The notes beneath the pieces were generated by a model that did not search any database, was not told the DNA's origin, and was given only the letters and a program-made list of their open reading frames with translations. The position numbers and the translations under genes were made by a program. This document shows, in pieces, positions 1-35,338 of a DNA stretch of 64,000 bases (position 1 is the first letter of the stretch; each line of letters opens with the position of its first letter). The stretch is taken from the NCBI GenBank assembly GCA_963790305.1, contig CAWBOC010000009.1:416001-480000 (forward strand), given 5' to 3'. This DNA comes from an uncultured Gemmatimonadaceae bacterium (GTDB lineage Bacteria > Gemmatimonadota > Gemmatimonadetes > Gemmatimonadales > Gemmatimonadaceae).

Positions 1-91
1 GAACCGCGAATCGCTTGCTCAACCCGACGATCGAGATCGCACTCGCCGTCCGCGTGGCGCAGAGAACCGTGGGCGCGGCCACCAGGGTCAT
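1..91 (-). CDS. 5' fragment of probable ABC transporter ATP-binding protein (runs off window start), part of lasso cluster
   Basis: ATG at 91-89 overlaps the kinase stop (ATGA). Translation MTLVAAPTVLCATRTASAISIVGLSKRFAV resembles the 'I.v.gLsKrF' start of ABC ATPases. Confidence 0.55.
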   Translation of the reverse strand, partial: MTLVAAPTVLCATRTASAISIVGLSKRFAV

Positions 92-1137
92 ACCGAGCCC
101 GCTCCTACGCCGTCGGCATGCCACGCGAGCACATCGGCGACGACCTCATCCAGTCGCGTGAAATCACGAGAGACCTCGAGCAGTCGCACCGGGACGCGCC
201 GCGCCAGCGCGACGACTCGGTCGAGCAGCGCCACCGCTTCGCAACCGGTGAGAAGAGGTGCGATCTTCGCGTGGCGAACGAGCGAGAGCGCCGAGGGCAC
301 CGGTGGCAAGGCGCTTACGCGAGCCGCTGCGCCGCCGGGAAGCGCGGTCACCGGTGACAGCAAGTACAGCGCGGCGATCGGCACCGCCTCAGCCTGGAGC
401 CGGTCGATCTCGAGCGCGTCAACGACCATCCGGTCGCCCGACGGGCGCGCCTCACGAGGGGCGGGCGGCAGCCGCGTCGCCGCATCGGAGCGAAGCCGAA
501 GCTCGTGGACGCCCGGGAATGCGAGAGGCCCGCCGTCGAGCTGAACGCGGAGCGTGTCGTCGGTGAGAAGTCGCGCGCCGGCTCGCACGAGGGCCCACGC
601 GAGCGTGGATTTTCCGAAGCCCTTCGAGCCGAGAAACGCGATCGCCTCGCGTTCGATCGCGACGGCACTGGCGTGAAAGCAGACGTCGCCAGCAGCGTGC
701 ATTGCCGTCGCGAGGACTCGGCCCATGATGTCGACGCGCGCGGCGTCTTCGGACACGGTCGCCGGGGCGCGCCAGATGATGGCGCCGCCCGAGGCATCGA
801 TGTCGAAGCGCCCCGTGTCGTCATACATGAGATGCCAACCGCGACTCGATCGATAGAGACGCGCACTGGCGCTCGCGTCGACCTGGTCGCTGCCGAGCGC
901 CTCGGCATCCCGGGGCATGGGCTCCGGTGCGTGGCGGTGCAGCGTCCAGGTGGGGCGTGCGGCCGTCAGCGCCCGCAGCGATGGACACTCGAGCGCGGTG
1001 CGGAGCACCCCTCCGAAAATCGCGTAGTCGGTCACTGCGGCTGGTGTGGCTGGGAGGTCGACCAGACCCTCCCGAGCCACGGGAGCATTACGAGCGTGAT
1101 CCGCAGGAACCACTGGAAGGGTACCAGTTGTTCCCAT
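88..1137 (-). CDS. HPr-kinase-related (lasso peptide) kinase; true start probably a GTG downstream of 1087 (e.g. 1035)
   Basis: FHASAV motif, Walker A GSKGFGKST and LLTDD motif typical of HprK-like kinases. Lies directly after lasso precursors. The given ATG overlaps precursor 2, so the start is uncertain. Confidence 0.8.
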   Translation of the reverse strand: MGTTGTLPVVPADHARNAPVAREGLVDLPATPAAVTDYAIFGGVLRTALECPSLRALTAARPTWTLHRHAPEPMPRDAEALGSDQVDASASARLYRSSRGWHLMYDDTGRFDIDASGGAIIWRAPATVSEDAARVDIMGRVLATAMHAAGDVCFHASAVAIEREAIAFLGSKGFGKSTLAWALVRAGARLLTDDTLRVQLDGGPLAFPGVHELRLRSDAATRLPPAPREARPSGDRMVVDALEIDRLQAEAVPIAALYLLSPVTALPGGAAARVSALPPVPSALSLVRHAKIAPLLTGCEAVALLDRVVALARRVPVRLLEVSRDFTRLDEVVADVLAWHADGVGAGSV

Positions 1138-1255
1138 CGGACGTTACGCCGGTATCCGTGCTCGTGACGGTGAAGCCATCACAAGACCCGGTCACCCCGG
1201 CCTGGGTCAGCTCCCGGAACGTCCCGAAGCGCTGAACCTTGGGTTTCTCGTACAC
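1088..1255 (-). CDS. Lasso peptide precursor A2 (18-aa leader + 37-aa core AGVTGSCDGFTVTSTDTGVTSDGNNWYPSSGSCGSRS)
   Basis: Leader (M)YEKPKVQRFGTFRELTQ has YxxP-x-V, a conserved Gly and Thr at -2; Asp at core position 8. GTG start preceded by GGGAG RBS (alternative ATG at 1270). Confidence 0.85.
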   Translation of the reverse strand: MYEKPKVQRFGTFRELTQAGVTGSCDGFTVTSTDTGVTSDGNNWYPSSGSCGSRS

Positions 1256-1366
1256 AGCATCTCCCTGCATAAAAGGTGAGCCTCCTTCCTACGGGAACGA
1301 CACACACACCTGCACGAGCCTAACGAACTGAGACAGCGAGCCCTGTCCTCACTGTCCCAGGGACCA

Positions 1367-1543
1367 CTACGAACGCCCGCTGTTGATGTCACCATCCCAC
1401 GGGCATTCAGGGCGATTCGGCGCCCCACAGATGTTGTCGCCGCCAATTCCGAAGACGACGAGACCATCGTTGTCGCGGTCCCAGCCCGCCCGGGTGAGCT
1501 CGCGGAACGTACCGAAGCGTTCCACCCTGGGCTTTTCGTACAT
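1367..1543 (-). CDS. Lasso peptide precursor A1 (18-aa leader + 40-aa core AGWDRDNDGLVVFGIGGDNICGAPNRPECPWDGDINSGRS)
   Basis: Leader MYEKPRVERFGTFRELTR nearly identical to A2; AAGGAGGG RBS at 1547-1554; Asp8. Hidden at the C-terminus of spurious ORF 1367..2542. Confidence 0.88.
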   Translation of the reverse strand: MYEKPRVERFGTFRELTRAGWDRDNDGLVVFGIGGDNICGAPNRPECPWDGDINSGRS

Positions 1544-1632
1544 GAGCCCTCCTTGATGCACGGTCGCCGGGTTCGCCCCCCGGCCGGGAGCGGGCCACAC
1601 CGGCCCGCGTGTCCGATCGTCGAAATCGACTG

Positions 1633-3586
1633 TCACGAAAGAGCACCGGCGAATGCCTGCGAGGCGCGCATCGGGCCGCCGTTCGGCGATCCCCGCGACG
1701 CGTCGTGCGCCCGCGTCCAGAACTCCGTCTGCAGCGTGAGAAAGAGCGTCACGCCAAGGTTGCCGTCGCCGCTCGCCTTCCACTCCTCCCAACCGCGACG
1801 CAGCGCCGCCGGGTCGATGATCCCAAGCTCCGCGAGCCGGCTGTCGCGCACCGCCCTGTCGACGAGACCGGCGCCCGCGTCGCGGAATGCCCGGCTGAAC
1901 AGCCGGCCGGTCGTTCCAGTCCGAGTGCGGCGGGGAGCGAGGACGTCGTCGGGTATGATGCCCCGCATCGCCGCTCGAAGGACCCGCTTCGTTTCCCGCT
2001 GTGACGCGCGCTCCTCCCGCGGACGCTCGGCCGCGAACGCGATCACGCGAGGATCCATCAGCGGTGATCGCACTTCGACCCCTTCCTCGCGCGCGAGGGC
2101 GCTCACGCACGCGTAGACGCGCGGGAAATACGGCGCGGTCATGTAATACCGGCTCTCGACGGCCGCGAAGCTCTCGCCCCGCCGCCGACGTGGCGTGGTC
2201 CGGGCACGCTCCGCAAAAGCATTCCGGCGCGCGAACTCGGGGTTGATCCAGGCGGGAACGTCGCGCTCGAGATATGCGCGGAGTGCGCGGCCGCGTCGAA
2301 GGGTCGCCGCCGCGTTGAGCGCGAACGCGGGCAGCAGCGGCTGAATCGCCCAGCGGAACAGTGTGCGCGCATCGCGAACACCACGCGCGCGGCATTCCTG
2401 TGCCGCCGCGAAGAGCCGACCGCTGCGCACCAGATCGGCGAGGTAGACCAGCGAGACCTGGAAGAGCTGATCGCCACCATTGCCATGCAGTGCGACGTGG
2501 GAATCCACGGCGCGACTTCCTCTGGCGAGAGCACGGTTCCAATGCTCGAACACATGGGCAAAGGGCTCATCCCGGCTGGCCGCGCCCTCGCAGAGTTGAT
2601 CGAGCAAGGAGATCTCTGCACTGTCGATCCAGTGCGGCGTCGCCCCCCAACGCCCCGCGACGGATGTGATGAGCTCATCTTCGCGCCCCGGATCACCCAC
2701 CGGGTACGTGATCGAGACTGCGCGAACCCGATCGACGTCGCCGCGCGTGGCCGACATGGCGGCGCCGAAGACCGCCGGTGAATCCCACCCGCCGCTGAGC
2801 CACACACTCGTTGCGCCGCGCGGCGTCGAGCCGTTCCTGAACGGCGCGCGCGAGGAGGTCGCGCAGCGCCACTGCGCCATCCTCGAGGGTCAGCCGGCGG
2901 CCGCTCTCGAACGTCGGCGCTTCCCAGTGCCGGGCCAGCACCGGGCGTGCGTCACCGATGCAGGAGAGCGTATGGGCGGCGGGAATTCGTTCGATCGATG
3001 CCAGGCAGGTGCTCGTCTCGTCGAGGGCGAGTCCCGCAGCCACTTCGCCAAGGTGAGGGAGATTGAGGGCAGGCTCCGCGCCAGCGGCGACGAGCCCGGA
3101 AACCCCCGAGGCCAACAACAGGCCATCGCGCGTCTCGGTGTAGAAAAGCGGCCGCGTGGCGCCGAGGTCGCGCGCCGCGACCATCCGCCGCGCAACGGAG
3201 TCCCAGATGATGAACGCGAAGTCGCCCTCGAGACGACGGCCGCACTGATCGCCCCACGCGCGATACGCCGCAAGAATCACGTGCGCGGTGGTCGGCCCCG
3301 ACGGACGCGCGTCCCTCTGTCGCAGCGCACGAAGGAGATCGGTTCGATAGTACAATGCGGCATCGGCGACGACGACGATCCCGGCTTCGCTCGCGATCGC
3401 CAGCGTGCTCTCACGGCCAGGCATCGCCTCCCACGTGTCGGATGCGATCGCAAGCGTGGCGTCGCCACACGACACGACCCGCGAGAGCTCGGCGCCGCGC
3501 CGCGCCATCGCGCTGAGTGCACGACTGGCGAGCTCCTCGCAATGCGTGCTGCGAGCGCGGGTGATGACGGCGACGATGGCGCTCAT
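1633..3586 (-). CDS. Lasso peptide cyclase (asparagine synthetase-like, C protein); +1 frameshift near 2820-2825, probably a sequencing error
   Basis: N-half MSAIVAV...LEGDFAFIIWD...ARDLGATRPLFY (Ntn-like domain without Cys1). C-half in another frame: WLSGGWDS, GNGGDQLF, EVRSPLMD, KRVLRAAM. ATG overlaps the B2 stop. Confidence 0.85.
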
Positions 3587-4035
3587 CGAGCTCCCACGAG
3601 GCGCACGTCGGCGAGAGGCTCGAATGAGGCAACATGCTCTGAGGAATCGGCGAGCACCTCCGCCCCGAGCTCGACCCATGCGTGCGCCTCGAATCGACCG
3701 GTTCGCTCCCGCACACCAATGCGAACGTGCCACCCGGGCACCTGCGCGCGCTCCAGCATCCGCGACAGCGCCAGCGAGCGAACGAGACAGTTGGGACGAA
3801 ACACGCCGCGGCGCGAGACGAGCGACACGGCGTTGGCCAGTTTTCGCGCCGTCACGCGTGCGAGCTCGTCAGGCGCGGCCGATGCCTCACGCTCCCGTCG
3901 CACGAGGCGACCCTGGGGACGGGTCCACACCGCGAGCTGCGCTCGCAGCAAGGCGAGCTGCGCGCGCAGGAGCTCGCGGCGCTCGGCCTCGCTAAGCGAG
4001 ACGAGTTTCGACAGTCGCGACGCGAGGCGGCGCAT
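3583..4035 (-). CDS. Lasso peptide leader peptidase B2 (transglutaminase-like)
   Basis: NCLVRSLAL (catalytic Cys), VRIGV and FEAHAWVE (His) motifs; lies between PqqD and cyclase. Confidence 0.9.
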   Translation of the reverse strand: MRRLASRLSKLVSLSEAERRELLRAQLALLRAQLAVWTRPQGRLVRREREASAAPDELARVTARKLANAVSLVSRRGVFRPNCLVRSLALSRMLERAQVPGWHVRIGVRERTGRFEAHAWVELGAEVLADSSEHVASFEPLADVRLVGAR

Positions 4036-4315
4036 GCCGGGCGGGCTCCGGAGCGGGGACGAGCAGACCGAACGATTGCAGCGAGCTCAGCAGCTCGATG
4101 ACATCGGCGCGGAGATCAGCCGGCGAAACCTCGGGGTGCCGTGCCGCGAGCGCGGCGCAGAGCGAGTCGAATGACATGTGCGCGGGAGGCAACATCTCCC
4201 AGACTTCCGCCGCAACGGCGTTGAGGCCGAAATACACCTCGTCCGTGAGCGAGAAGAGGACGGCGCCTTCCGACAACGTCCGATAGATGACTGCCTGGTT
4301 CCGAGTGGGCAGCAT
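3992..4315 (-). CDS. PqqD-family RiPP recognition element (lasso B1)
   Basis: GAVLFSLTDEVYFGLNAVAAEVWEML...DVIELLSSLQSFGLL matches the PqqD/RRE pattern. Confidence 0.88.
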   Translation of the reverse strand: MLPTRNQAVIYRTLSEGAVLFSLTDEVYFGLNAVAAEVWEMLPPAHMSFDSLCAALAARHPEVSPADLRADVIELLSSLQSFGLLVPAPEPARHAPPRVATVETRLA

Positions 4316-4640
4316 GCAGCAGCTCTCGTCGACACGATTGCTCGTGCCGTGGCCATTGGGCTCGCAGACGCGAGACAGGGATCGCGTTACGACATGTCCC
4401 GGTTAGCATCCGGGGCTGCAAGCAATGGCAGAGGCGATGCCATCCTCAAGGGATGGTCCCGGGACGTGCCCTCGTGGGCAACGTATTACGCCACAACGGC
4501 TTCCGATCTGAGGGCTCGAATGTGGATAACGTTCGCCGTGCGCGCGTTCCGCATCGTTTGTTGCGGTACTGCGACAGGTGGGCCGTTCCGCAAATGCGAA
4601 ATGATTTTTGCACGTCACCCTCATTAGCGTGCCCTAACGA

Positions 4641-4672
4641 AATAAAACGGCGCCTCAGAGAGGCGCCGTTTC
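4641..4672 (-). terminator. Rho-independent terminator after rpsG
   Basis: Stem AAACGGCGCCTC / GAGGCGCCGTTT followed on the minus strand by TTTTATTT. Confidence 0.85.
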
Positions 4673-4694
4673 ATAACGATTCGCTCGAAAGGGC

Positions 4695-5161
4695 TTACCA
4701 GCGATAGTGCGCGAACGCCTTGTTCGCTTCCGCCATGCGGTGCGTGTCTTCCTTCTTCTTCACCGCGTTGCCTTCACCCTTCGACGCCGCGATGATCTCG
4801 GCCGCGAGCTTCTCCGGCATCGACTTCTCACCGCGATCGCGCGAGTACGAGATGAGCCAGCGCATGGCGAGCGCCGTACGCCGCTCGGGCCGCACTTCGA
4901 CCGGAACCTGGTAGGTCGCGCCACCAACACGGCGGCTCTTCACTTCCACGACCGGCTTGAGGTTGGTCAGAGCCTGCTTGAAGACGTTGACGCCCGGTTG
5001 CCCAGTGCGGGATTCCACGAGGTCCATCGCGCCGTAGAAGATGCGCTCGCCGGTGGACTTCTTCCCCTGGTACATCAGGACGTTGATGAACTTCGAGACC
5101 GTCTGGCTGTCATAGCGCGCGTCGGCAAGGACGGGGCGCTTGATGGACTTTTGTCGGCGGC

Positions 5162-5165
<4 letters not shown>
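4695..5165 (-). CDS. rpsG: 30S ribosomal protein S7
   Basis: [29 protein letters not shown]. Confidence 0.98.
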
Positions 5166-5548
<383 letters not shown>

Positions 5549-5576
5549 AACCTCAGGTAAGCAGCACAGAACAATA

Positions 5577-5606
5577 AAGTTAACGGCTCCGGTCGAGCGG
5601 TGTCAA
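5577..5606 (-). promoter_or_regulatory. Sigma70-type promoter for rpsL-rpsG
   Basis: Minus strand TTGACA-18 nt-TAACTT, about 30 nt upstream of the rpsL ATG. Confidence 0.6.
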
Positions 5607-5610
5607 TTGA

Positions 5611-5700
5611 CGAGGATGGCGAAGTCGTCCAGGTCGTCGAGGTGATCGAGGCGACATCACCTCGAGCACCTCGACATCCTCGACAACCTCGATTACCTCG
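5611..5700. repeat. Inverted array of 9-mer tandem repeats (GAGGTCGTC-like / CCTCGACAT-like), hairpin downstream of rpoC
   Basis: Left arm gaagtcgtc caggtcgtc gaggtgatc gagg; right arm cctcgagca cctcgacat cctcgacaa cctcgatta cctcg. Confidence 0.75.
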
Positions 5701-5703
5701 CTT

Positions 5704-8700
5704 CTATAGCTCCTCGTCGATCACGTGCGTCGCCGTTCCGAAGCCAGCGTCCGATAAACCAGGGACTGGAAGCGGGGCGAAGGGCTCCAGCGGTGCTGCC
5801 GGCACGAAGCCCTCCGGCGGCTCCGGCGCCTGGAGATCGATGTCGATCTCCGAATACCGATACTGACCGGTACCCGCCGGGATGAGGTGGCCGATGATGA
5901 TGTTCTCCTTGAGCCCAAGGAGATCGTCCTTGGCCCCGCGGATCGCCGCATCGGTGAGCACGCGAGTGGTCTCCTGGAACGACGCCGCCGAAATGAACGA
6001 CTGCGTCGTGAGGCTCGCCTTGGTGATACCCAGGAGCAACGGCTCCGAGGTGCCGGGCTTGAGCCCCTTCTTCTGGGCGCGGTCGTTGATCTCGCGGAAC
6101 GAGCCCTTGTCCACATGCTCGGCCTCGAGGAACTCCGTCTCCCCGGGATCCATGATGCGCACCTTCTGAAGCATCTGCCTGACGATCACGCCAATGTGCT
6201 TGTCGTTGATCTTCACGCCCTGCAGGCGATACACCTCCTGCACCTCGTTCAGCAGATACTCCTGCACCGCACGGGGTCCCTTGATCCGCAAAATGTCGTG
6301 CGGATTCACGGGTCCCTCCGACAGGCGGTCACCGGCGCGCACGCGATCGCCCTCGTGCACGCGAAGGTGCTTGCCTGCCGGAACCTCGTACAGCTGCGCT
6401 TCCTGCGACTCGTCCGCGACCTGATAGCCATCTGGGCCGTCACGCGTCGGCTGGACGAAGACCTCGCGCTTGCCACGCTTGATCTCCCCGAACCGCACCG
6501 TGCCGTCGACTTCCGAGATCGTCGCCGGATCCTTCGGCCGGCGCGCCTCGAACAGTTCTGCGACGCGCGGCAGACCACCGGTGATGTCACGCGTCTTGTA
6601 CGCCTCGCGGCCGATCTTGGCGAGAATGGTTCCCGCCCCGATCTTCTCACCATCGTCCACCGTCAGCTGCGCGCCGACCGGGATGACGAAGTCACGCAGA
6701 CGCTTCTCCTTTCCACCCTTCTCCTGCACGATCTCGATGTGAGGGTGCAGCCGCTTCTCGCGATCTTCGATGATCACCCGCTGCCGCAGGCCGGTGAGCT
6801 CGTCGAGCTCCTCGGTCACCGACTCATCCTCGACGATATCGACGAAGCGGACCGTGCCTTCGACGTCGGCGATGATGGGATTCGTGTACGGATCCCAGGT
6901 GAAGATCACCGTGTCCTTCTTCACGTCCTCGCCATCGGCGACCATCAGGAGTGCACCCAGCGGTACCGCGAAGCGCGACGCCACCGGCGCGTTCTTCTCC
7001 GCTGAGCCACGGATGATGATCTCACCCTCGTACGACGTCACGATCCGCTGCCCGTCGGAATTCTCGACGTGCACCAGCCGCTCCCCGTACTCGACGACCC
7101 CTGCCACCTTCGACTTGCGCGCCGTTTGCTCGGCGATACGCGCCGCCGTTCCACCGATGTGGAAGGTTCGGAGCGTGAGCTGCGTCCCTGGCTCGCCGAT
7201 CGACTGCGCGGCGAGAATACCGACCGCCTCGCCGAGATCCACCATGAACATCGTGGCCAGGTTTCGCCCGTAGCACATTCTGGCAGAGCCCGCGCTTGGC
7301 CTCGCAGGTGAGCACCGAGCGGATCTTCACCGTCTCGAGCCCCGAGTCCTCGATCGCGCGCGCCGTTTCCTCATCGATGAGCAGTCCCGCCTCCACGAGC
7401 AGCTTGGGGCGACCCGACTCATCGCGCTCATGCGGATCCTCGACATCCTCGGCCGCCACGTTGCCGACGATACGCTCGGCGAGCGGCTCGATGATGTCTT
7501 CGCCTTCCTTCAGCGCGCCGACCTCCAGTCCGAGGATCGTGCCGCAATCCTCTTCGGTGATCGTCACGTCCTGCGCGACGTCGACGAGACGACGCGTGAG
7601 GTAGCCGGCATCCGCGGTCTTGAGTGCGGTGTCGGCCAGACCCTTACGAGCGCCGTGCGTCGAGATGAAGTACTCGAGCACCGAGAGTCCTTCCCGGAAA
7701 TTCGACTTGATCGGGCTCTCGATGATCTCGCCAATGCCGCCGGTGAGCTTCTTCTGCGGCTTCGCCATGAGACCGCGCATACCCGCCAGCTGACGGATCT
7801 GATCGCGGCTGCCGCGCGAGCCGGAATCGAACATCATGAACACCGGGTTGAGCCCGCTCTTCGACTTCGACATCGCCTTCACCATGGCGTCGGCAATGTC
7901 GTTGTTCGCGTGCGTCCAGGTGTCGATCACCTTGTTGTAGCGCTCGCCGTTCGTGATGTTGCCCGTCTGATACGCGCGCTGGAAGCGCTCGACGCGCGCC
8001 TCCGCCTCCTCGAGCAGCGTCTCCTTCTCGCCGGGAATCTCGAGGTCTTCAACGCCGATGGAGACACCACCCATCGTCGCGTAGCGGAACCCGAACTCCT
8101 TGAGGCGATCGAGGAACGCGACCGTTCCCGAGAGCCCCGAGCGCCGATAGGCCTCGAACACGAGCTCCGAGAGTGCCTTTTTCTTCATCTCGCGGTTCTG
8201 GAACGGCATGACGTCGGGGATGATGCTGTTGAACAGCACGCGTCCCGCCGTCGTACGCTCCCACCGCGCGGGGCCACCCGGTTCACGAACCAGAAACTGG
8301 ACTGGCGTGTGATAGGTGAGCCGGCCCACCGCGAGTGCCGCCTCGATCTCCGCGAGCTCCGTGTAGCGTGGCGCATCGGTGACCTTCGTCGGATCGACCG
8401 GAGCGCGCGTGAGGAAGTAGCAGCCGAGGACAATGTCCTGGCTGGGCTCCGCCACCGGACGTCCATCCGACGGCTTGAGGATGTTGTTCGACGACAGCAT
8501 CAGCAGGCGCGACTCGAGCTGCGCCTCGAACGACAGCGGCACGTGCACCGCCATCTGGTCGCCGTCGAAGTCCGCGTTGAACGCCGCGCAGACGAGCGGG
8601 TGGATGCGGATGGCCTTCCCCTCGACGAGCACAGGCTCGAACGCCTGGATGCCTAACCGGTGCAGCGTCGGCGCGCGATTCAACAGAACGGGATGATCCT

Positions 8701-10027
8701 TGATGATCTCTTCGAGGATCTCGTACACCTCCGGGCTCTCGCGCTCGACGATCTTCTTCGCGCGCTTGACCGTTTCGGCGATCCCCTTCTCCACCAGCTT
8801 GTGGATGATGAACGGCTTGAACAGCTCGAGCGCCATCGCCTTCGGAAGTCCGCACTGGTGCAGGCGGAGCTCCGGGCCCACGACGATGACCGAACGTCCC
8901 GAGTAGTCCACGCGCTTGCCGAGCAGGTTCTGACGGAACCGGCCCTGCTTGCCCTTGAGCATGTCGCTGAGCGACTTGAGCGGCCGCTTGCCGCGACCGC
9001 GAATCGCCTTGGAGCGACGGCCGTTGTCGAACAGCGCGTCGACGGCCTCCTGCAGCATGCGCTTCTCGTTCCGGAGAATGACTTCCGGCGCGCGATGCAT
9101 GATCAGCTTCTGCAGTCGGTTGTTGCGGTTGATGACACGGCGGTACAGGTCGTTCAGGTCCGACGTCGCGAAGCGGCCGCCATCGAGCGGCACGAGCGGA
9201 CGCAGGTCGGGCGGAATCACTGGAATGACGTCCAGGATCATCCACTCCGGCTTGTTGCGCGTGTCGCCCGACTCACCCGAGTTGCGGAACGCGTCGACGA
9301 TCTTGAGCCGCTTGAGCATCTGCTTCTTCCGATGCTGCGACGTCTCCGTCTGCACGTCCTCGCGGAGCTGGTCGGAGACCTTGTCCACGTCGAGGCGGCG
9401 AAGCAGCTCGCGCACCGCCGGCGCTCCAATGTCCGCCTTGAAGGCGTCGTCGTTCGCCTCACGCGCCTTGGCGCGGAGGTCGAGGTACTCGTCCTCGTCG
9501 AGCAGCTGCAGCGGACGCACTTCCTGCTCGCCCGGCTCGATGACGACGTAGTTCGAGTAGTAGATGACCTTCTCGAGATCACGGAGGGTGAGATCGAGGA
9601 GGTTGCCCATCGGGCTGGGCAGGGTCTTGAAGAACCAGATGTGCGCCACGGGCACCGCGAGCTCGATGTGACCCATGCGCTCGCGACGCACCTTGGACAG
9701 CGTCACCTCGACACCGCAGCGGTCGCAAATCACCCCGCGGTAGCGGATGCGCTTGTACTTCCCGCAATGGCACTCCCAGTCCTTGACCGGACCGAAGATG
9801 CGCTCGCAGAAGAGGCCGTCCTTTTCGGGCTTGAACGAGCGGTAGTTGATGGTCTCGGGCTTGGTGACCTCGCCCCACGACCACCAGTTCCGCCCGCCGC
9901 CCATTTCGATCCGCTCACGCTCCTTGGGATCCTTGGGACCACGGATCTCCTCGGGCGACGCAATGCGAATCTGGATGAAATCGAAGTTCGAGCTGCGCGG
10001 CTCGCGCGCGCTACGGAAGTCAATCAT
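5704..10027 (-). CDS. rpoC: RNA polymerase beta' subunit; +1 frameshift near 7282 (probable sequencing error)
   Basis: [11 protein letters not shown] active site and N-terminal zinc finger. ORFs 7022..10027 and 5704..7278 join as ...[14 protein letters not shown] if one C is removed. Confidence 0.97.
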
Positions 10028-32825: not shown

Positions 32826-33584
32826 ATGATCGAGCTCAAGGCGCTGACCAAGCGCTACGGCGGATTCACCGCTGTGGACGCCATCGACCTCACTGTGCCA
32901 AAGGGAGAGCTGTTCGGCTTTCTGGGGCCTAACGGCGCCGGCAAGACGACGACGCTCCGCATGATCGCCGGCATCCTCCAGCCTTCCGGTGGCACTGTCC
33001 GAATCGCGGGGATCGACATCGCTGCCGATCCGATCGCCGCCAAGGCGAAGCTGGGGTTCATTCCCGATCGCCCTTTCATCTACGAGAAGCTTACCGGCGC
33101 CGAATTTCTGCGATTCGTGGCCGGCCTCTACGATCAGAGCGGGGAGCCGGTCGAGCGGCGCATGACGGAGCTGCTAGCGCTGTTCGATCTGCTGAACTGG
33201 AAAGACGAGCTGGTCGAGAGCTACAGCCATGGGATGCGGCAGAAGCTCATCATCTCGAGCGCCTTCTTGCACCGCCCCGAGGTCATCGTCGTCGATGAGC
33301 CAATGGTCGGCCTCGATCCGAAGGCGGCAAAAGTGCTGAAGGATCTCTTTCGCGAGTACACCCGGCGGGGCCACACGATCATGATGTCGACGCACACCCT
33401 CGAGGTGGCGCAGAGCTTGTGCGACCGCGTCGCGATCATTCAAGGCGGAAAGATTCGGGCATCCGGAACGATGGCCGAGCTGCGTGCGCACGCGGCGGCC
33501 GGAGAGGAAGGCCTGGAGGACATCTTCCTGCGTCTCACCGGCGACAACGCGGCGCGGGCGGTCGTCGAGGTGCTCAATGCCTGA
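32826..33584 (+). CDS. ABC transporter ATP-binding protein
   Basis: GPNGAGKTT, YSHGMRQK, VVDEP, STH. Confidence 0.95.
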   Translation: MIELKALTKRYGGFTAVDAIDLTVPKGELFGFLGPNGAGKTTTLRMIAGILQPSGGTVRIAGIDIAADPIAAKAKLGFIPDRPFIYEKLTGAEFLRFVAGLYDQSGEPVERRMTELLALFDLLNWKDELVESYSHGMRQKLIISSAFLHRPEVIVVDEPMVGLDPKAAKVLKDLFREYTRRGHTIMMSTHTLEVAQSLCDRVAIIQGGKIRASGTMAELRAHAAAGEEGLEDIFLRLTGDNAARAVVEVLNA

Positions 33585-35338
33585 GGCAGCTCGCCTCCAG
33601 AATGCAGCGAGCGATGACGATTCCTCGCGCGACCCACTCGCGCTGGTCACGGCACTCCCGCGCGTTCCACTGCTGCACCTCCTTCGCCCGAAATGGCTGA
33701 CCGCGCGCGTGCGCGCGCGCGGCAAGGAGCGTGGGCGCGGGGCGCGCATCGCCCTTCTCGGCATAACCGGCGCGCTCTTCTGGGCCTTCGTGCTGGTCGT
33801 CGTTTTCCGACTGCTGCTCTACTTCCGTCGCGTGCCGGACATCGGACCTCTGCTCGCGGGAAAGCTCCTCGGAATCATCTTCGTCAGCTTTTTCTCGATT
33901 CTCCTGCTATCCAACATCATCACCGCGCTGTCGAGCTTTTTCGTGGCGCGGGATCTCGATCTGCTCGTATCGGCTCCGGTAGACTGGCTGCGGCTGTATG
34001 GCGCGAAGCTGCTCGAAACGGCGGTGCATTCGAGCTGGATGGTCGTGTTGATGGCGGTGCCGATCTTCGTGGCGTACGGAGTGGCCTACGATGGCGGCAT
34101 TCTGGTTCCCTCTCGTCGCGCTGGCCACCTTCATTCCCTTCCTGCTGATTCCCGCCGTAGTCGGGAGCGCGATCACGCTTCTGCTGGTGCGCGTCTTCCC
34201 CGCCCGGCGTACGCGCGACATTCTGAGCGTGATCGCCGTCCTCGCGGCCGGCGGGCTCGTTCTGCTGTTCCGCATGGTCCGCCCCGAGCAGCTGGCGCGG
34301 CCGGAGGGGTTTCGCTCACTCGTCGATTTCATCGCCGTCCTCAAGACGCCGACCTCCCCGCTCCTCCCGAGCGAGTGGGTGCAGCGCGCGGTCATGTCAT
34401 CGCTGATGGGAATTCCCGATGTGCTGCCCTACTACCTGCTGTGGTCGACGGCGGCGGCATTCGTGGTGTTCGGGGCCTTGCTGCATCGCTCGCTGTATGC
34501 GAAGGGCTTCACCAAGGCGCAGGAGAGCAGCGAGCGATGGGTGCGAGGAACACGCCTCAAGCGCATTGGGGCGGCGATGCTCGCTCCATTCGGCACAGTG
34601 CGACGTGAGCTGCTGATGAAGGAGACCCGCGTGTTTTTCCGCGACACGACGCAGTGGTCGCAGCTGATCCTCCTCGGCGTCCTCGTCATCGTGTACGTGT
34701 TCAACATCAAGTTTCTCCCCTTGCGGGGCGAGGGGGTGACGTTCTTTCTCGTCAACGTGATTCCCTTCCTGAATCTCGTGCTCGCCGGATTCGTGCTCGC
34801 TTCGATTGCGGCGCGCTTCATCTTCCCTGGCGTAAGCCTGGAAGGCCGCACGATGTGGCTCCTCAAGTCGAGTCCACTGCGGATGCGCGAGCTCCTCTGG
34901 GCGAAGTTCTGGATCGGGACGCTGCCCCTGCTGCTCCTCGCCCTGGGCATCGTCTTCATCACGAACGTGCTGCTGCAAGTGACGCCTTTCATGATGTACG
35001 TGTCGCTGTTCACCATCACGCTGATGACCTTTGCGCTCGCCGGCCTCGCCCTGGCGCTCGGAACGCTGTTCCCGCAGTTCGAGACGGAGAATGCGGCGCA
35101 GATTCCCACATCGTTCGGCGGCCTGGTCTACATGATGGGAGCCGTCGCGCTCATCGGTGCGGTGGTGGTGCTGGAAGCACGACCGGTGTATGGGTACGTG
35201 AGCGCGCGGGCGTTCGGAGGCTCGGCGGACCCGCTGGAGATGATTGTCGGCTTCGGACTGGCCGCGGCGCTGTGCATTGCGACGCTCGTCGTGTCCGTCA
35301 CCATTGCGATTCGCCGACTTCACGCGGTCGAGCTCTGA
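33577..35338 (+). CDS. Putative ABC transporter permease (multi-TM); +1 frameshift near 34100
   Basis: Hydrophobic frames of ORFs 33484..34608 and 34091..35338 join at AYDGG-x-WFPLVAL; SLEG..WLLKSSP motif. Confidence 0.75.

Follow-up and report, generated by a model that had tools for sequence, protein, structure and literature searches.

The DNA considered here (hereafter, the window) is a stretch of 64,000 nucleotides from an uncultured Gemmatimonadaceae bacterium (assembly GCA_963790305.1, contig CAWBOC010000009.1, positions 416,001 to 480,000), at the left end of which lies a cassette for lasso peptide biosynthesis. On the minus strand of positions 1-4315, the list of open reading frames (ORFs), combined with Pfam and NCBIfam models, gives a PqqD-like leader-recognition protein (B1), a cysteine protease (B2), a cyclase (C), two precursors (A1 and A2), a kinase (K), and the 5' end of an ABC ATPase. 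These seven genes had been proposed in an initial annotation made from the letters alone, and all of them are present. The cluster is not a chance arrangement; many related genomes carry this cassette too. Its features in the window are as follows (aa, amino acids).

4636..4674, minus strand: rpsG terminator-like hairpin (directed fold of 4632-4690)
4428..4442, minus strand: sigma-54-type promoter-like motif, TGGCAT-N5-CTGC
3992..4315, minus strand: B1, PqqD-like leader-recognition protein (RRE), 107 aa (PF05402)
3583..4035, minus strand: B2, transglutaminase-like cysteine protease, 150 aa (PF13471, NF033537)
1633..3586, minus strand: C, Asn-synthetase-like lasso cyclase, in two frames (PF13537 and PF00733)
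1367..1543, minus strand: A1 precursor, 58 aa (NF033521)
1328..1360, minus strand: hairpin of 13 bp after the A1 stop (fold of 1268-1372)
1088..1270, minus strand: A2 precursor, 60 aa (NF033521)
88..1137, minus strand: K, ORF of a P-loop kinase of HPr-kinase/PEPCK fold (PF07475 and TIGR04352, weak)
1..124, minus strand: ABC ATPase, 5' end; its ATG at 89-91 overlaps the kinase stop, and the gene runs off the window

The adjoining DNA on the left (contig positions 400001-418000, called L002, with coordinates counted within it) had been suggested as a place to look for further tailoring genes. It completes the ATPase and adds an ABC-2 permease and a nucleotidyltransferase (NTase) of family PF14907, which brings the full order to B1-B2-C-A1-A2-K-ABC ATPase-ABC-2 permease-NTase, and its size to 7.2 kb. 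Directly past the NTase come fusA (ending at about L002 10560), tuf, rpsJ, rplC, and rplD, while rpsG, rpsL, rpoC, and rpoB make up the other flank. With rpsG and rpsL on one side and fusA on the other, the cassette is thus an insertion between rpsG and fusA, in the str operon, and it has the same orientation as the genes of that operon. A genome-wide search found it to be the sole lasso cluster of the 4.3-Mb assembly (13 contigs). A foreign origin of this island was considered from its G+C content and set aside, the difference between cassette and genome being small (68.4% vs 65.9%).

The initial annotation had most of the genes coupled by overlapping start and stop codons. This stands for B1/B2 (an overlap of 44 nt), B2/C, and kinase/ATPase (ATGA in both), and not for C-A1 and A1-A2, which are separated by spacers of about 90 nt each.

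Biosynthetic Enzymes and Transport Genes

The family assignments of the two leader-processing proteins are clear. B1 matches PF05402 with 51.2 bits (E 1.6e-13, cut-off 23.4), and the lasso PqqD models of NCBIfam with an E-value of 1e-7, under their clade-specific cut-offs. B2 scores 69.2 bits against PF13471 (E 3.8e-19, cut-off 26) and 74.1 bits against NF033537, lasso_biosyn_B2 (cut-off 33).

The N-terminal half of the cyclase, starting from the ATG at 3586, matches GATase_7 (PF13537, 66 bits), and the C-terminal half, ending at 1633, matches Asn_synthase (PF00733, 109 bits), both above the Pfam cut-offs; the three Pfam models put forward for checking B1, B2, and the cyclase thus all return matches. 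The ATP-pyrophosphatase motif SGGWDS is present. The protein begins MSAIV, with Ser after Met (Thr in the ortholog of G171, a genome of the same genus), and therefore lacks the Cys nucleophile of true asparagine synthetases, in agreement with the initial description of a homolog without Cys1. For both halves, and for the intact same-genus ortholog, the lasso cyclase model is the best NCBIfam match; the ortholog scores 194 bits against NF033535 vs 133 bits against the asparagine synthase model TIGR01536, whose cut-off is 267. A true asparagine synthetase B, acting as a glutamine amidotransferase, was rejected on these two grounds, the missing N-terminal Cys and the TIGR01536 score below its cut-off.

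The kinase gives only weak matches, below cut-off, to Hpr_kinase_C (PF07475, E 1.4e-4) and TIGR04352 (E 3e-8). Translation probably begins inside the ORF, at a GTG at position 1080 with 7 nt between it and the A2 stop, since the similarity to relatives sets in only at about residue 28-38; in G171, similarity upstream of that point lies in another frame. Numbered from this start, H136, S138, G156, K157, D174, and D175 are invariant in 48 aligned homologs. The AlphaFold2 model of the protein (pLDDT 94.0, pTM 0.90) retrieves with Foldseek PEP carboxykinase 1oen (E 4e-8) and the HPr kinase/phosphorylase HprK/P 1kkm_A (E 7e-7, TM 0.60 on the target). ESM Atlas matches are unnamed clusters only, some with a minority of members carrying Hpr_kinase_C. 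Lasso kinases have a conserved and essential His-Lys-Asp-Asp set (PMC9266682), and the D158A/D159A mutant of PsmK, the kinase of pseudomycoidin, is inactive (PMC6993621); these papers, like the others cited below, are used through excerpts of their text. The same four residue types are among those invariant in the 48 kinases, in a comparison by residue type. The predicted target of the kinase is the Ser at the C-terminus of each precursor.

The three genes that complete the cassette are well covered by Pfam. The ABC ATPase (L002 15033-16124) is above the Pfam cut-off for PF00005, with 106 bits, and below that of TIGR01188, drrA, with 232 bits. The ABC-2 permease (L002 14240-15127) reaches 64 bits with PF01061, also above the Pfam cut-off, and the NTase (L002 13075-14286, 403 aa, annotated as 'uncharacterised nucleotidyltransferase') reaches 123 bits with PF14907 (cut-off 31.2).

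Precursor Peptides

A1, preceded by AGGAGG 5 nt upstream of its ATG, consists of the 18-aa leader MYEKPRVERFGTFRELTR and a 40-aa core, AGWDRDND...GRS, with Cys21 and Cys29. A2 has a leader ending in ...YEKPKVQRFGTFRELTQ and a 37-aa core, AGVTGSCDG...CGSRS, with Cys7 and Cys33; it counts 60 aa from an ATG, or 55 aa from a GTG just before the Tyr. Both leaders display YxxP and Thr(-2), and both exceed the cut-off (19) of NF033521, lasso_leader_L3, with 28.3 bits for A1 and 27.5 bits for A2. The leaders, described initially as almost identical, share 14 of the 17 residues that run from the Tyr onward. The cores have in common the features first read in them, namely Ala1-Gly2, Asp8-Gly9, two Cys, and a terminal Arg-Ser.

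These features are well conserved among relatives. In an alignment of 32 precursors of the family, the leader residues Y, P, G, R, L, and T never vary, and conservation of core Gly2 and Asp8 is 90% or higher. Among metagenomic sequences, A1 has 13 homologs (five named 'hypothetical protein', the others without name), all of them with Gly2, Asp8-Gly9, and the terminal Arg-Ser, and nearly all with the Cys. For a larger comparison, the cores of 69 unique kinase-adjacent precursors, out of 109 unique precursors in all, were compiled. Asp or Glu stands at position 8 in 64 of the 69, Gly at position 2 in 66, and Val, Ala, or Ile at position 1 in 59. A terminal Ser ends 46 of these cores (Arg-Ser in 25), two Cys are found in 33 and none in six, and the median core length is 36 residues. 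Such conservation fits a ring closed between residue 1 and Asp8, a disulfide, and a modified terminal Ser.

Both precursors would be substrates of the same machinery. It might instead be that only one of them is a true substrate, and that A2, with its uncertain start and a Cys beside the ring Asp, is a decaying duplicate. Most related cassettes hold one precursor, and in the close relative L079 the leader pattern (given below) matched only one. Nevertheless, A2 retains 14 of the 17 leader residues along with Thr(-2), Gly2, Asp8-Gly9, its two Cys, and the Ser at its end, and it is kept with these features in G171; the two-precursor layout is also found in L078, L080, and L082. Single clusters with multiple precursors are known besides: operons with 'one or several A genes' are described in PMC6993621, and caulosegnin is such a case, judging from a title in the reference list of PMC8498205. 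A single-substrate cluster is, therefore, distinctly unlikely, and A1 and A2 are both taken as substrates hereafter.

Distribution and Chromosomal Position

A leader search of the phylum had been recommended with the initial annotation. With A1 as the query, matches (E <= 0.01) were obtained in 51 of 401 sampled genomes of Gemmatimonadota, corresponding to 32 of 147 genera, and, for the window's own family, in 28 of 93. A leader pattern, [EQV]R[FY]G[TS][FL]R[ED]LT, derived from the 32-precursor alignment, was also searched in one genome per species (185,579 species), giving 228 stretches, 213 of them confirmed, and the best 80 of these 213 were analyzed as related loci. All 80 are titled Gemmatimonadaceae, Gemmatimonadales, Gemmatimonadota/-etes, Gemmatimonas, or Longimicrobiaceae/-ales, in line with the origin that had been guessed for the window from its letters.

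The order B1-B2-C-A-K-ATPase-permease-NTase recurs in most of the best 80 loci, and it is kept across genera at 40-60% protein identity. The position next to rpsG and/or fusA is seen in 33 of them: both genes are visible beside the cassette in 10 loci, rpsG alone in 12, and fusA alone in 11. Neither side is seen in another 23, mostly for want of flank, and the remaining 24 hold a precursor and no gene of the cassette, over flanks of at most 8 kb. In these 24 loci (L084, L103, L108, L116-L118, L124, L126-L128, L133, and L138 among them), the orphan precursors have the same leader and a core of the type 'VGFNGTTDGFTICG...'; a terminal Ser is found in only seven of the 25 unique orphans. An orphan coexists with a cassette embedded in the str operon in at least one genome, G111, and orphan precursors may be processed in trans. 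A 337-aa gene downstream of the L108 orphan has no Pfam match, and its candidacy as a diverged kinase was dismissed (hhalign probability 0.1).

Two further results concern the age of the position. Over 13 loci, the distances of cyclase, kinase, and ATPase correlate with those of fusA (r 0.74, 0.69, and 0.70, with 0 of 2000 permutations as high in each case), values that are inflated by close kin among the 13. On a quick maximum-likelihood tree of 70 cyclases, of which 33 are labeled 'str', 13 'elsewhere', and 24 neither, the str label requires four changes, at least two of them forced by well-supported branches; shuffled labels require 11.5 on average, and none of 500 shuffles requires as few. 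One well-supported clade of 32 cyclases contains 23 'str' and no 'elsewhere'. The position is thus old, mostly vertically inherited, and has undergone few moves. On this comparative evidence, the cassette appears to have long resided between rpsG and fusA in Gemmatimonadaceae.

Whether this residence has a meaning for the function of the peptides is a separate matter. The junction may simply be a tolerated insertion site at which the cassette hitch-hikes. In the best-scoring 30 loci of a search for rpsG in the family, the gene next to rpsG within 1.5 kb is B1 in 10, fusA in eight, and neither in 12 (two of these 12 had less than 600 nt of room), so the junction is variable; other genes, such as an S9 peptidase, occupy it in some relatives. 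The 13 of 70 cyclases that belong to cassettes elsewhere, the two to four changes of the str label on the tree, and the strong terminator that parts rpsG from the cassette all point in the same direction. Only the persistence of the position across genera speaks against hitch-hiking, which we consider quite likely. The opposite proposal is that the position is no accident, with the cassette at the rpsG-fusA junction since before the genera diverged and its long, disulfide-locked, phosphate-decorated lasso peptides acting on the translation apparatus. It is highly improbable, and neutral hitch-hiking is much likelier than a functional link to the str operon.

Several side observations were made at these loci. 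The S9 gene just mentioned lies in L039 (13193-15529, plus strand) between rpsG and B1, and encodes, on the opposite strand, a 778-aa protein with DPPIV_N and Peptidase_S9 domains; such a gene occurs in some relatives and is absent from the window. As lasso isopeptidases are, we assume, members of the S9 prolyl-oligopeptidase family, the L039 protein could function in opening lasso peptides. In some Gemmatimonadaceae genomes, rpsG is directly followed by a B1 homolog and the A1 search gave no leader match, for example, L169 (genome G094), so the str-embedded cassette is probably wider spread, with more diverged leaders. Short contigs that match parts of the cluster (window 1-4700) with an identity of 99% or more make up 5 of 15, 3 of 11, and 3 of 3 aligned records in sequencing runs X1, X3, and X4. 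With near-identical contigs in soil-metagenome runs of several studies, close strains therefore seem to live in soils.

Proposed Regulatory Elements

Right after the rpsG stop, a hairpin with a 15-bp G+C-rich stem followed by a U-rich run separates rpsG from the cassette. It folds with -29.3 kcal/mol (4632-4690, minus strand; z -4.8, 0 of 200 shuffles folding as well), and its stem is kept in L078, L079, and L082; a simple terminator scan of positions 1-5800 did not list it.

Downstream of this hairpin, about 113-127 nt upstream of the B1 ATG, stands TGGCAT-N5-CTGC, a motif of the -24/-12 sigma-54 type. It is the sole match to TGGCAYN5YTGC on either strand of the 64-kb window, yet 40 of 100 shuffles contain at least one match. 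The motif is kept in three close relatives with variable flanks. Of 70 unique upstream regions, 14 carry a looser version at a distance of 69-150 nt from B1, where the expectation is 0.0124 per 350 nt (under one overall). The genome has rpoN (PF04552, 215 bits), and a scan of 1-5800 found no sigma-70 promoter. Going by this conservation, a sigma-54-type promoter probably drives transcription of the cassette.

Between the motif and B1, the presumed 5' untranslated region (UTR) of B1 (4316-4427, minus strand) is highly conserved in four close relatives, with blocks such as CCCGGATG-CTAACCGGGACATGTCG and GATCCCTGTCTCGCG, and folds into several hairpins (z -2.4). Rfam offers no family for it, the scan of 1-5800 returning a chance miRNA match only (E 0.33). 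Within the cassette, a 13-bp hairpin without a U tract directly follows the A1 stop (1268-1372, minus strand: -42.5 kcal/mol, z -2.9, 0 of 200 shuffles), and it may act as an mRNA stabilizer or as a partial attenuator setting the precursor:enzyme ratio.

Comparison with Characterized Systems

The closest described system is that of pseudomycoidin (psm, Bacillus pseudomycoides; PMC6993621), which has, as here, a split B1/B2, a cyclase, a kinase of the HprK family, an 'uncharacterised nucleotidyltransferase' gene, an ABC exporter, and a precursor that ends in Ser and closes its ring, as predicted here too, from Ala1 to an internal Asp. The two differ in gene order (C-A-K-B1-B2-N-D in psm, B1-B2-C-A1-A2-K-ATPase-permease-NTase here), in the number of precursors (one in psm vs two here), and in the exporter, which is an 'ABC-type transporter gene psmD' in the former and a separate DrrA-like ATPase and ABC-2 permease in the latter. 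Also unlike psm, the present cores are 37-40 aa long with two Cys, and come from a different phylum.

Paeninodin (pade, Paenibacillus dendritiformis) and the kinases ThcoK (of a Thermobacillus) and SyanK (of the proteobacterium Sphingobium) represent systems in which phosphorylation takes place at the C-terminal Ser while the precursor is linear (PMC9266682, PMC8498205). The paeninodin core starts with Ala, like both cores of the window. Its cluster has no NTase, unlike the cassette described here, and the excerpts report no Cys for paeninodin-type products (paeninodin belongs to class II), again unlike the present cores. The kinase-plus-NTase pairing is known from psm, whose PsmN would belong, like the NTase of the cassette, to PF14907. 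The paeninodin core is, moreover, said to open with Ala-Gly.

Among disulfide-bearing lasso peptides, a bond from ring to tail marks class III and a bond within the tail class IV. With pairings that are themselves predicted, a class III-like bond is possible for A2 (Cys7-Cys33) and a class IV-like bond for A1 (Cys21-Cys29). In the excerpts of PMC9266682, none of the peptides of these two disulfide classes is phosphorylated or comes from a kinase cluster, unlike what is predicted here.

As to the lineage and the leader family, a full-text literature search, with most subscription papers outside it, found no characterized lasso peptide from Gemmatimonadota, as had been claimed at the outset, no characterized member of the NF033521 leader family, no paper printing these leader strings, and no paper placing a lasso cluster in the str operon or mentioning sigma-54-promoted residence there. 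The NF033521 model itself covers the leader only, and not the core, tailoring, or host range. Lasso biosynthetic gene clusters (BGCs) have been counted in 29 marine Gemmatimonadota metagenome-assembled genomes (PMC11316326), where the excerpts give counts only, with no precursor, kinase, synteny, or product. PMC9064862 describes a lasso BGC from an acidobacterial metagenome, with two A genes and a kinase of the aminoglycoside-phosphotransferase type, which was considered and set aside as a different family.

Kinase-bearing lasso clusters (in Firmicutes), the kinase-plus-NTase pair (in pseudomycoidin), and multi-precursor clusters are, therefore, already known, and the leader family already has a curated NCBIfam model and is common in the phylum. 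The cluster is an uncharacterized addition to the phosphorylated kind of lasso peptide. What distinguishes it are the 37-40-residue Cys-containing cores, the two dissimilar cores on one leader, the ABC-2 exporter, and the conserved place in a ribosomal operon; the str-operon residence and the probable sigma-54-type promoter are its unexpected parts.

Integrity of the Cassette and Predicted Products

Overall, the genes, their conservation, and their synteny make it likely that this is a working chromosomal lasso peptide cassette of the kinase-plus-nucleotidyltransferase type. Several points weigh against this reading. As assembled, the reading frame of the cyclase is broken. With every named HprK model, the score of the kinase stays far short of the cut-off (33 bits vs 200 for NCBIfam). 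The evidence for the sigma-54 motif consists of a consensus match and four closely related sequences, and none of the sequencing runs containing the stretch is recorded as RNA. The cores also raise difficulties: most characterized lasso cores are much shorter than 37-40 residues, so further trimming is possible; 23 of the 69 kinase-adjacent cores have no terminal Ser, so that a C-terminal Ser is not a general rule in the clade; and the three Cys of 30 of the 69 do not suit a picture with one disulfide. With these last two exceptions, the simple picture fails for the family as a whole.

The frame of the cyclase changes near 2818, in the run GCCGCGCGGCGC, by one extra base. At the same place G171 has a single 650-aa frame, reading ...QERLDARGPSSVWLSGGWDS..., and in the five closest relatives (L078-L082) the cyclase frame is open, with one full-length tblastn segment. 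The frameshift was also checked by aligning contigs of four soil-metagenome runs to the stretch. A contig of 283 nt from run X1 covers 2723-3005 with no mismatch and with exactly one base missing, at 2818. At this position, only about half of the summed contig depth of run X1 (3.33 of 6.33) shows the deletion, so that a second contig may agree with the sequence of the window, a further point against an intact cassette. A second one-base indel in this run, at 3162, was discarded: it lies between loose ends at 3145 and 3177 and was taken as a partial alignment of foreign sequence, and around 3162 the window stays in frame and is 80% identical to the ortholog of G171.

Other genes of the window are broken in the same manner. 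The essential rpoC is split near 7280 (about 7276-7290, minus strand) into ORFs 7022-10027 and 5704-7278, at ...RGLCQ / MCYGRNLA..., apparently by a single-base indel. A PF16949 (ABC_tran_2) gene at 33484-35338 on the plus strand is divided over ORFs 33484-34608 and 34091-35338, in different frames, one matching profile positions 9-122 and the other 129-542. Three single-base frame breaks within 64 kb of a 13-contig assembly indicate assembly indels, and an assembly error is most likely the cause of the cyclase frameshift.

If the extra base were real, the cluster would be a recently inactivated remnant in this strain, making no lasso peptide even though its relatives make one. The frameshift present in the given assembly and the divided depth in run X1 are in favor of this. 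However, the rest of the cassette is intact, its overlapping starts are kept, rpoC and a third gene are broken similarly nearby, and a contig otherwise identical over 283 nt does without the base, all of which renders inactivation unlikely.

For a working cassette, the comparative data support the predicted chemistry of the initial annotation, with Gly2 and Asp8 nearly invariant, a Cys pair, a terminal Ser, and the kinase residues in place: two products would be made, each with an Ala1-Asp8 ring, a disulfide, and a phospho-Ser. From the gene families, motifs, conservation, and synteny established above, we infer the following chemistry, promoter, and order of steps, patterned on PMC9266682, PMC8498205, and PMC6993621. 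Transcription would start at the cassette's own sigma-54-type promoter, downstream of the rpsG terminator. B1 would bind the YxKP...RELT leader shared by both precursors, and the kinase would phosphorylate the C-terminal Ser of the still-linear precursors, PadeK, the kinase of paeninodin, being inactive on threaded peptide. B2 would then cut after Thr(-2)-x, and the cyclase would adenylate Asp8 and join it to the Ala1 amine, closing an 8-residue ring around the tail. The NTase homolog (PF14907) may decorate the phosphate with a hexose or another group, as PsmN does. The two-part ABC-2 transporter would export the products, thereby protecting the producer, and, once beyond the cytoplasm, the Cys pairs would oxidize, linking Cys21 to Cys29 inside the A1 tail and Cys7 of the A2 ring to Cys33 of its tail.

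It is possible, if somewhat doubtful, that lasso peptides are made and tailored otherwise. The Cys could stay reduced, bind metal, or be linked in another way, and the Ser could carry a phospho-hexose, a nucleotide, or a polyphosphate, or the kinase and NTase could act elsewhere. PsmK and PsmN together yield mono- to polyphosphate plus one or two hexoses (PMC6993621, PMC9266682), and the cassette has a PF14907 gene; the family cores with three Cys or without a terminal Ser fit this as well. Nevertheless, both cores of the window have exactly two Cys, conserved in close homologs, both end in Arg-Ser like 25 of the 69 family cores, and lasso disulfides may form spontaneously (PMC9266682). Disulfide-bearing phospho-Ser products are retained as the prediction.

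Implications

One conserved leader followed by many different, long, Cys-containing cores constitutes a natural library, attractive for discovery and engineering. The cluster also offers a test of whether phosphorylation, perhaps with glycosylation through the NTase homolog, can go together with disulfide locking, of whether one cyclase can thread two very different cores of 37-40 residues, and of the biological role of terminal phosphorylation. Should the improbable link to the str operon be true, the peptides would inhibit the ribosomes or EF-G of competitors, or slow the producer's own translation under sigma-54 control. They would then form a lasso family tied to the ribosome, encoded within the operon of its own target and built on what may be the longest cores of any lasso peptide, in which one machinery makes both ring-to-tail and tail-to-tail disulfide topologies.

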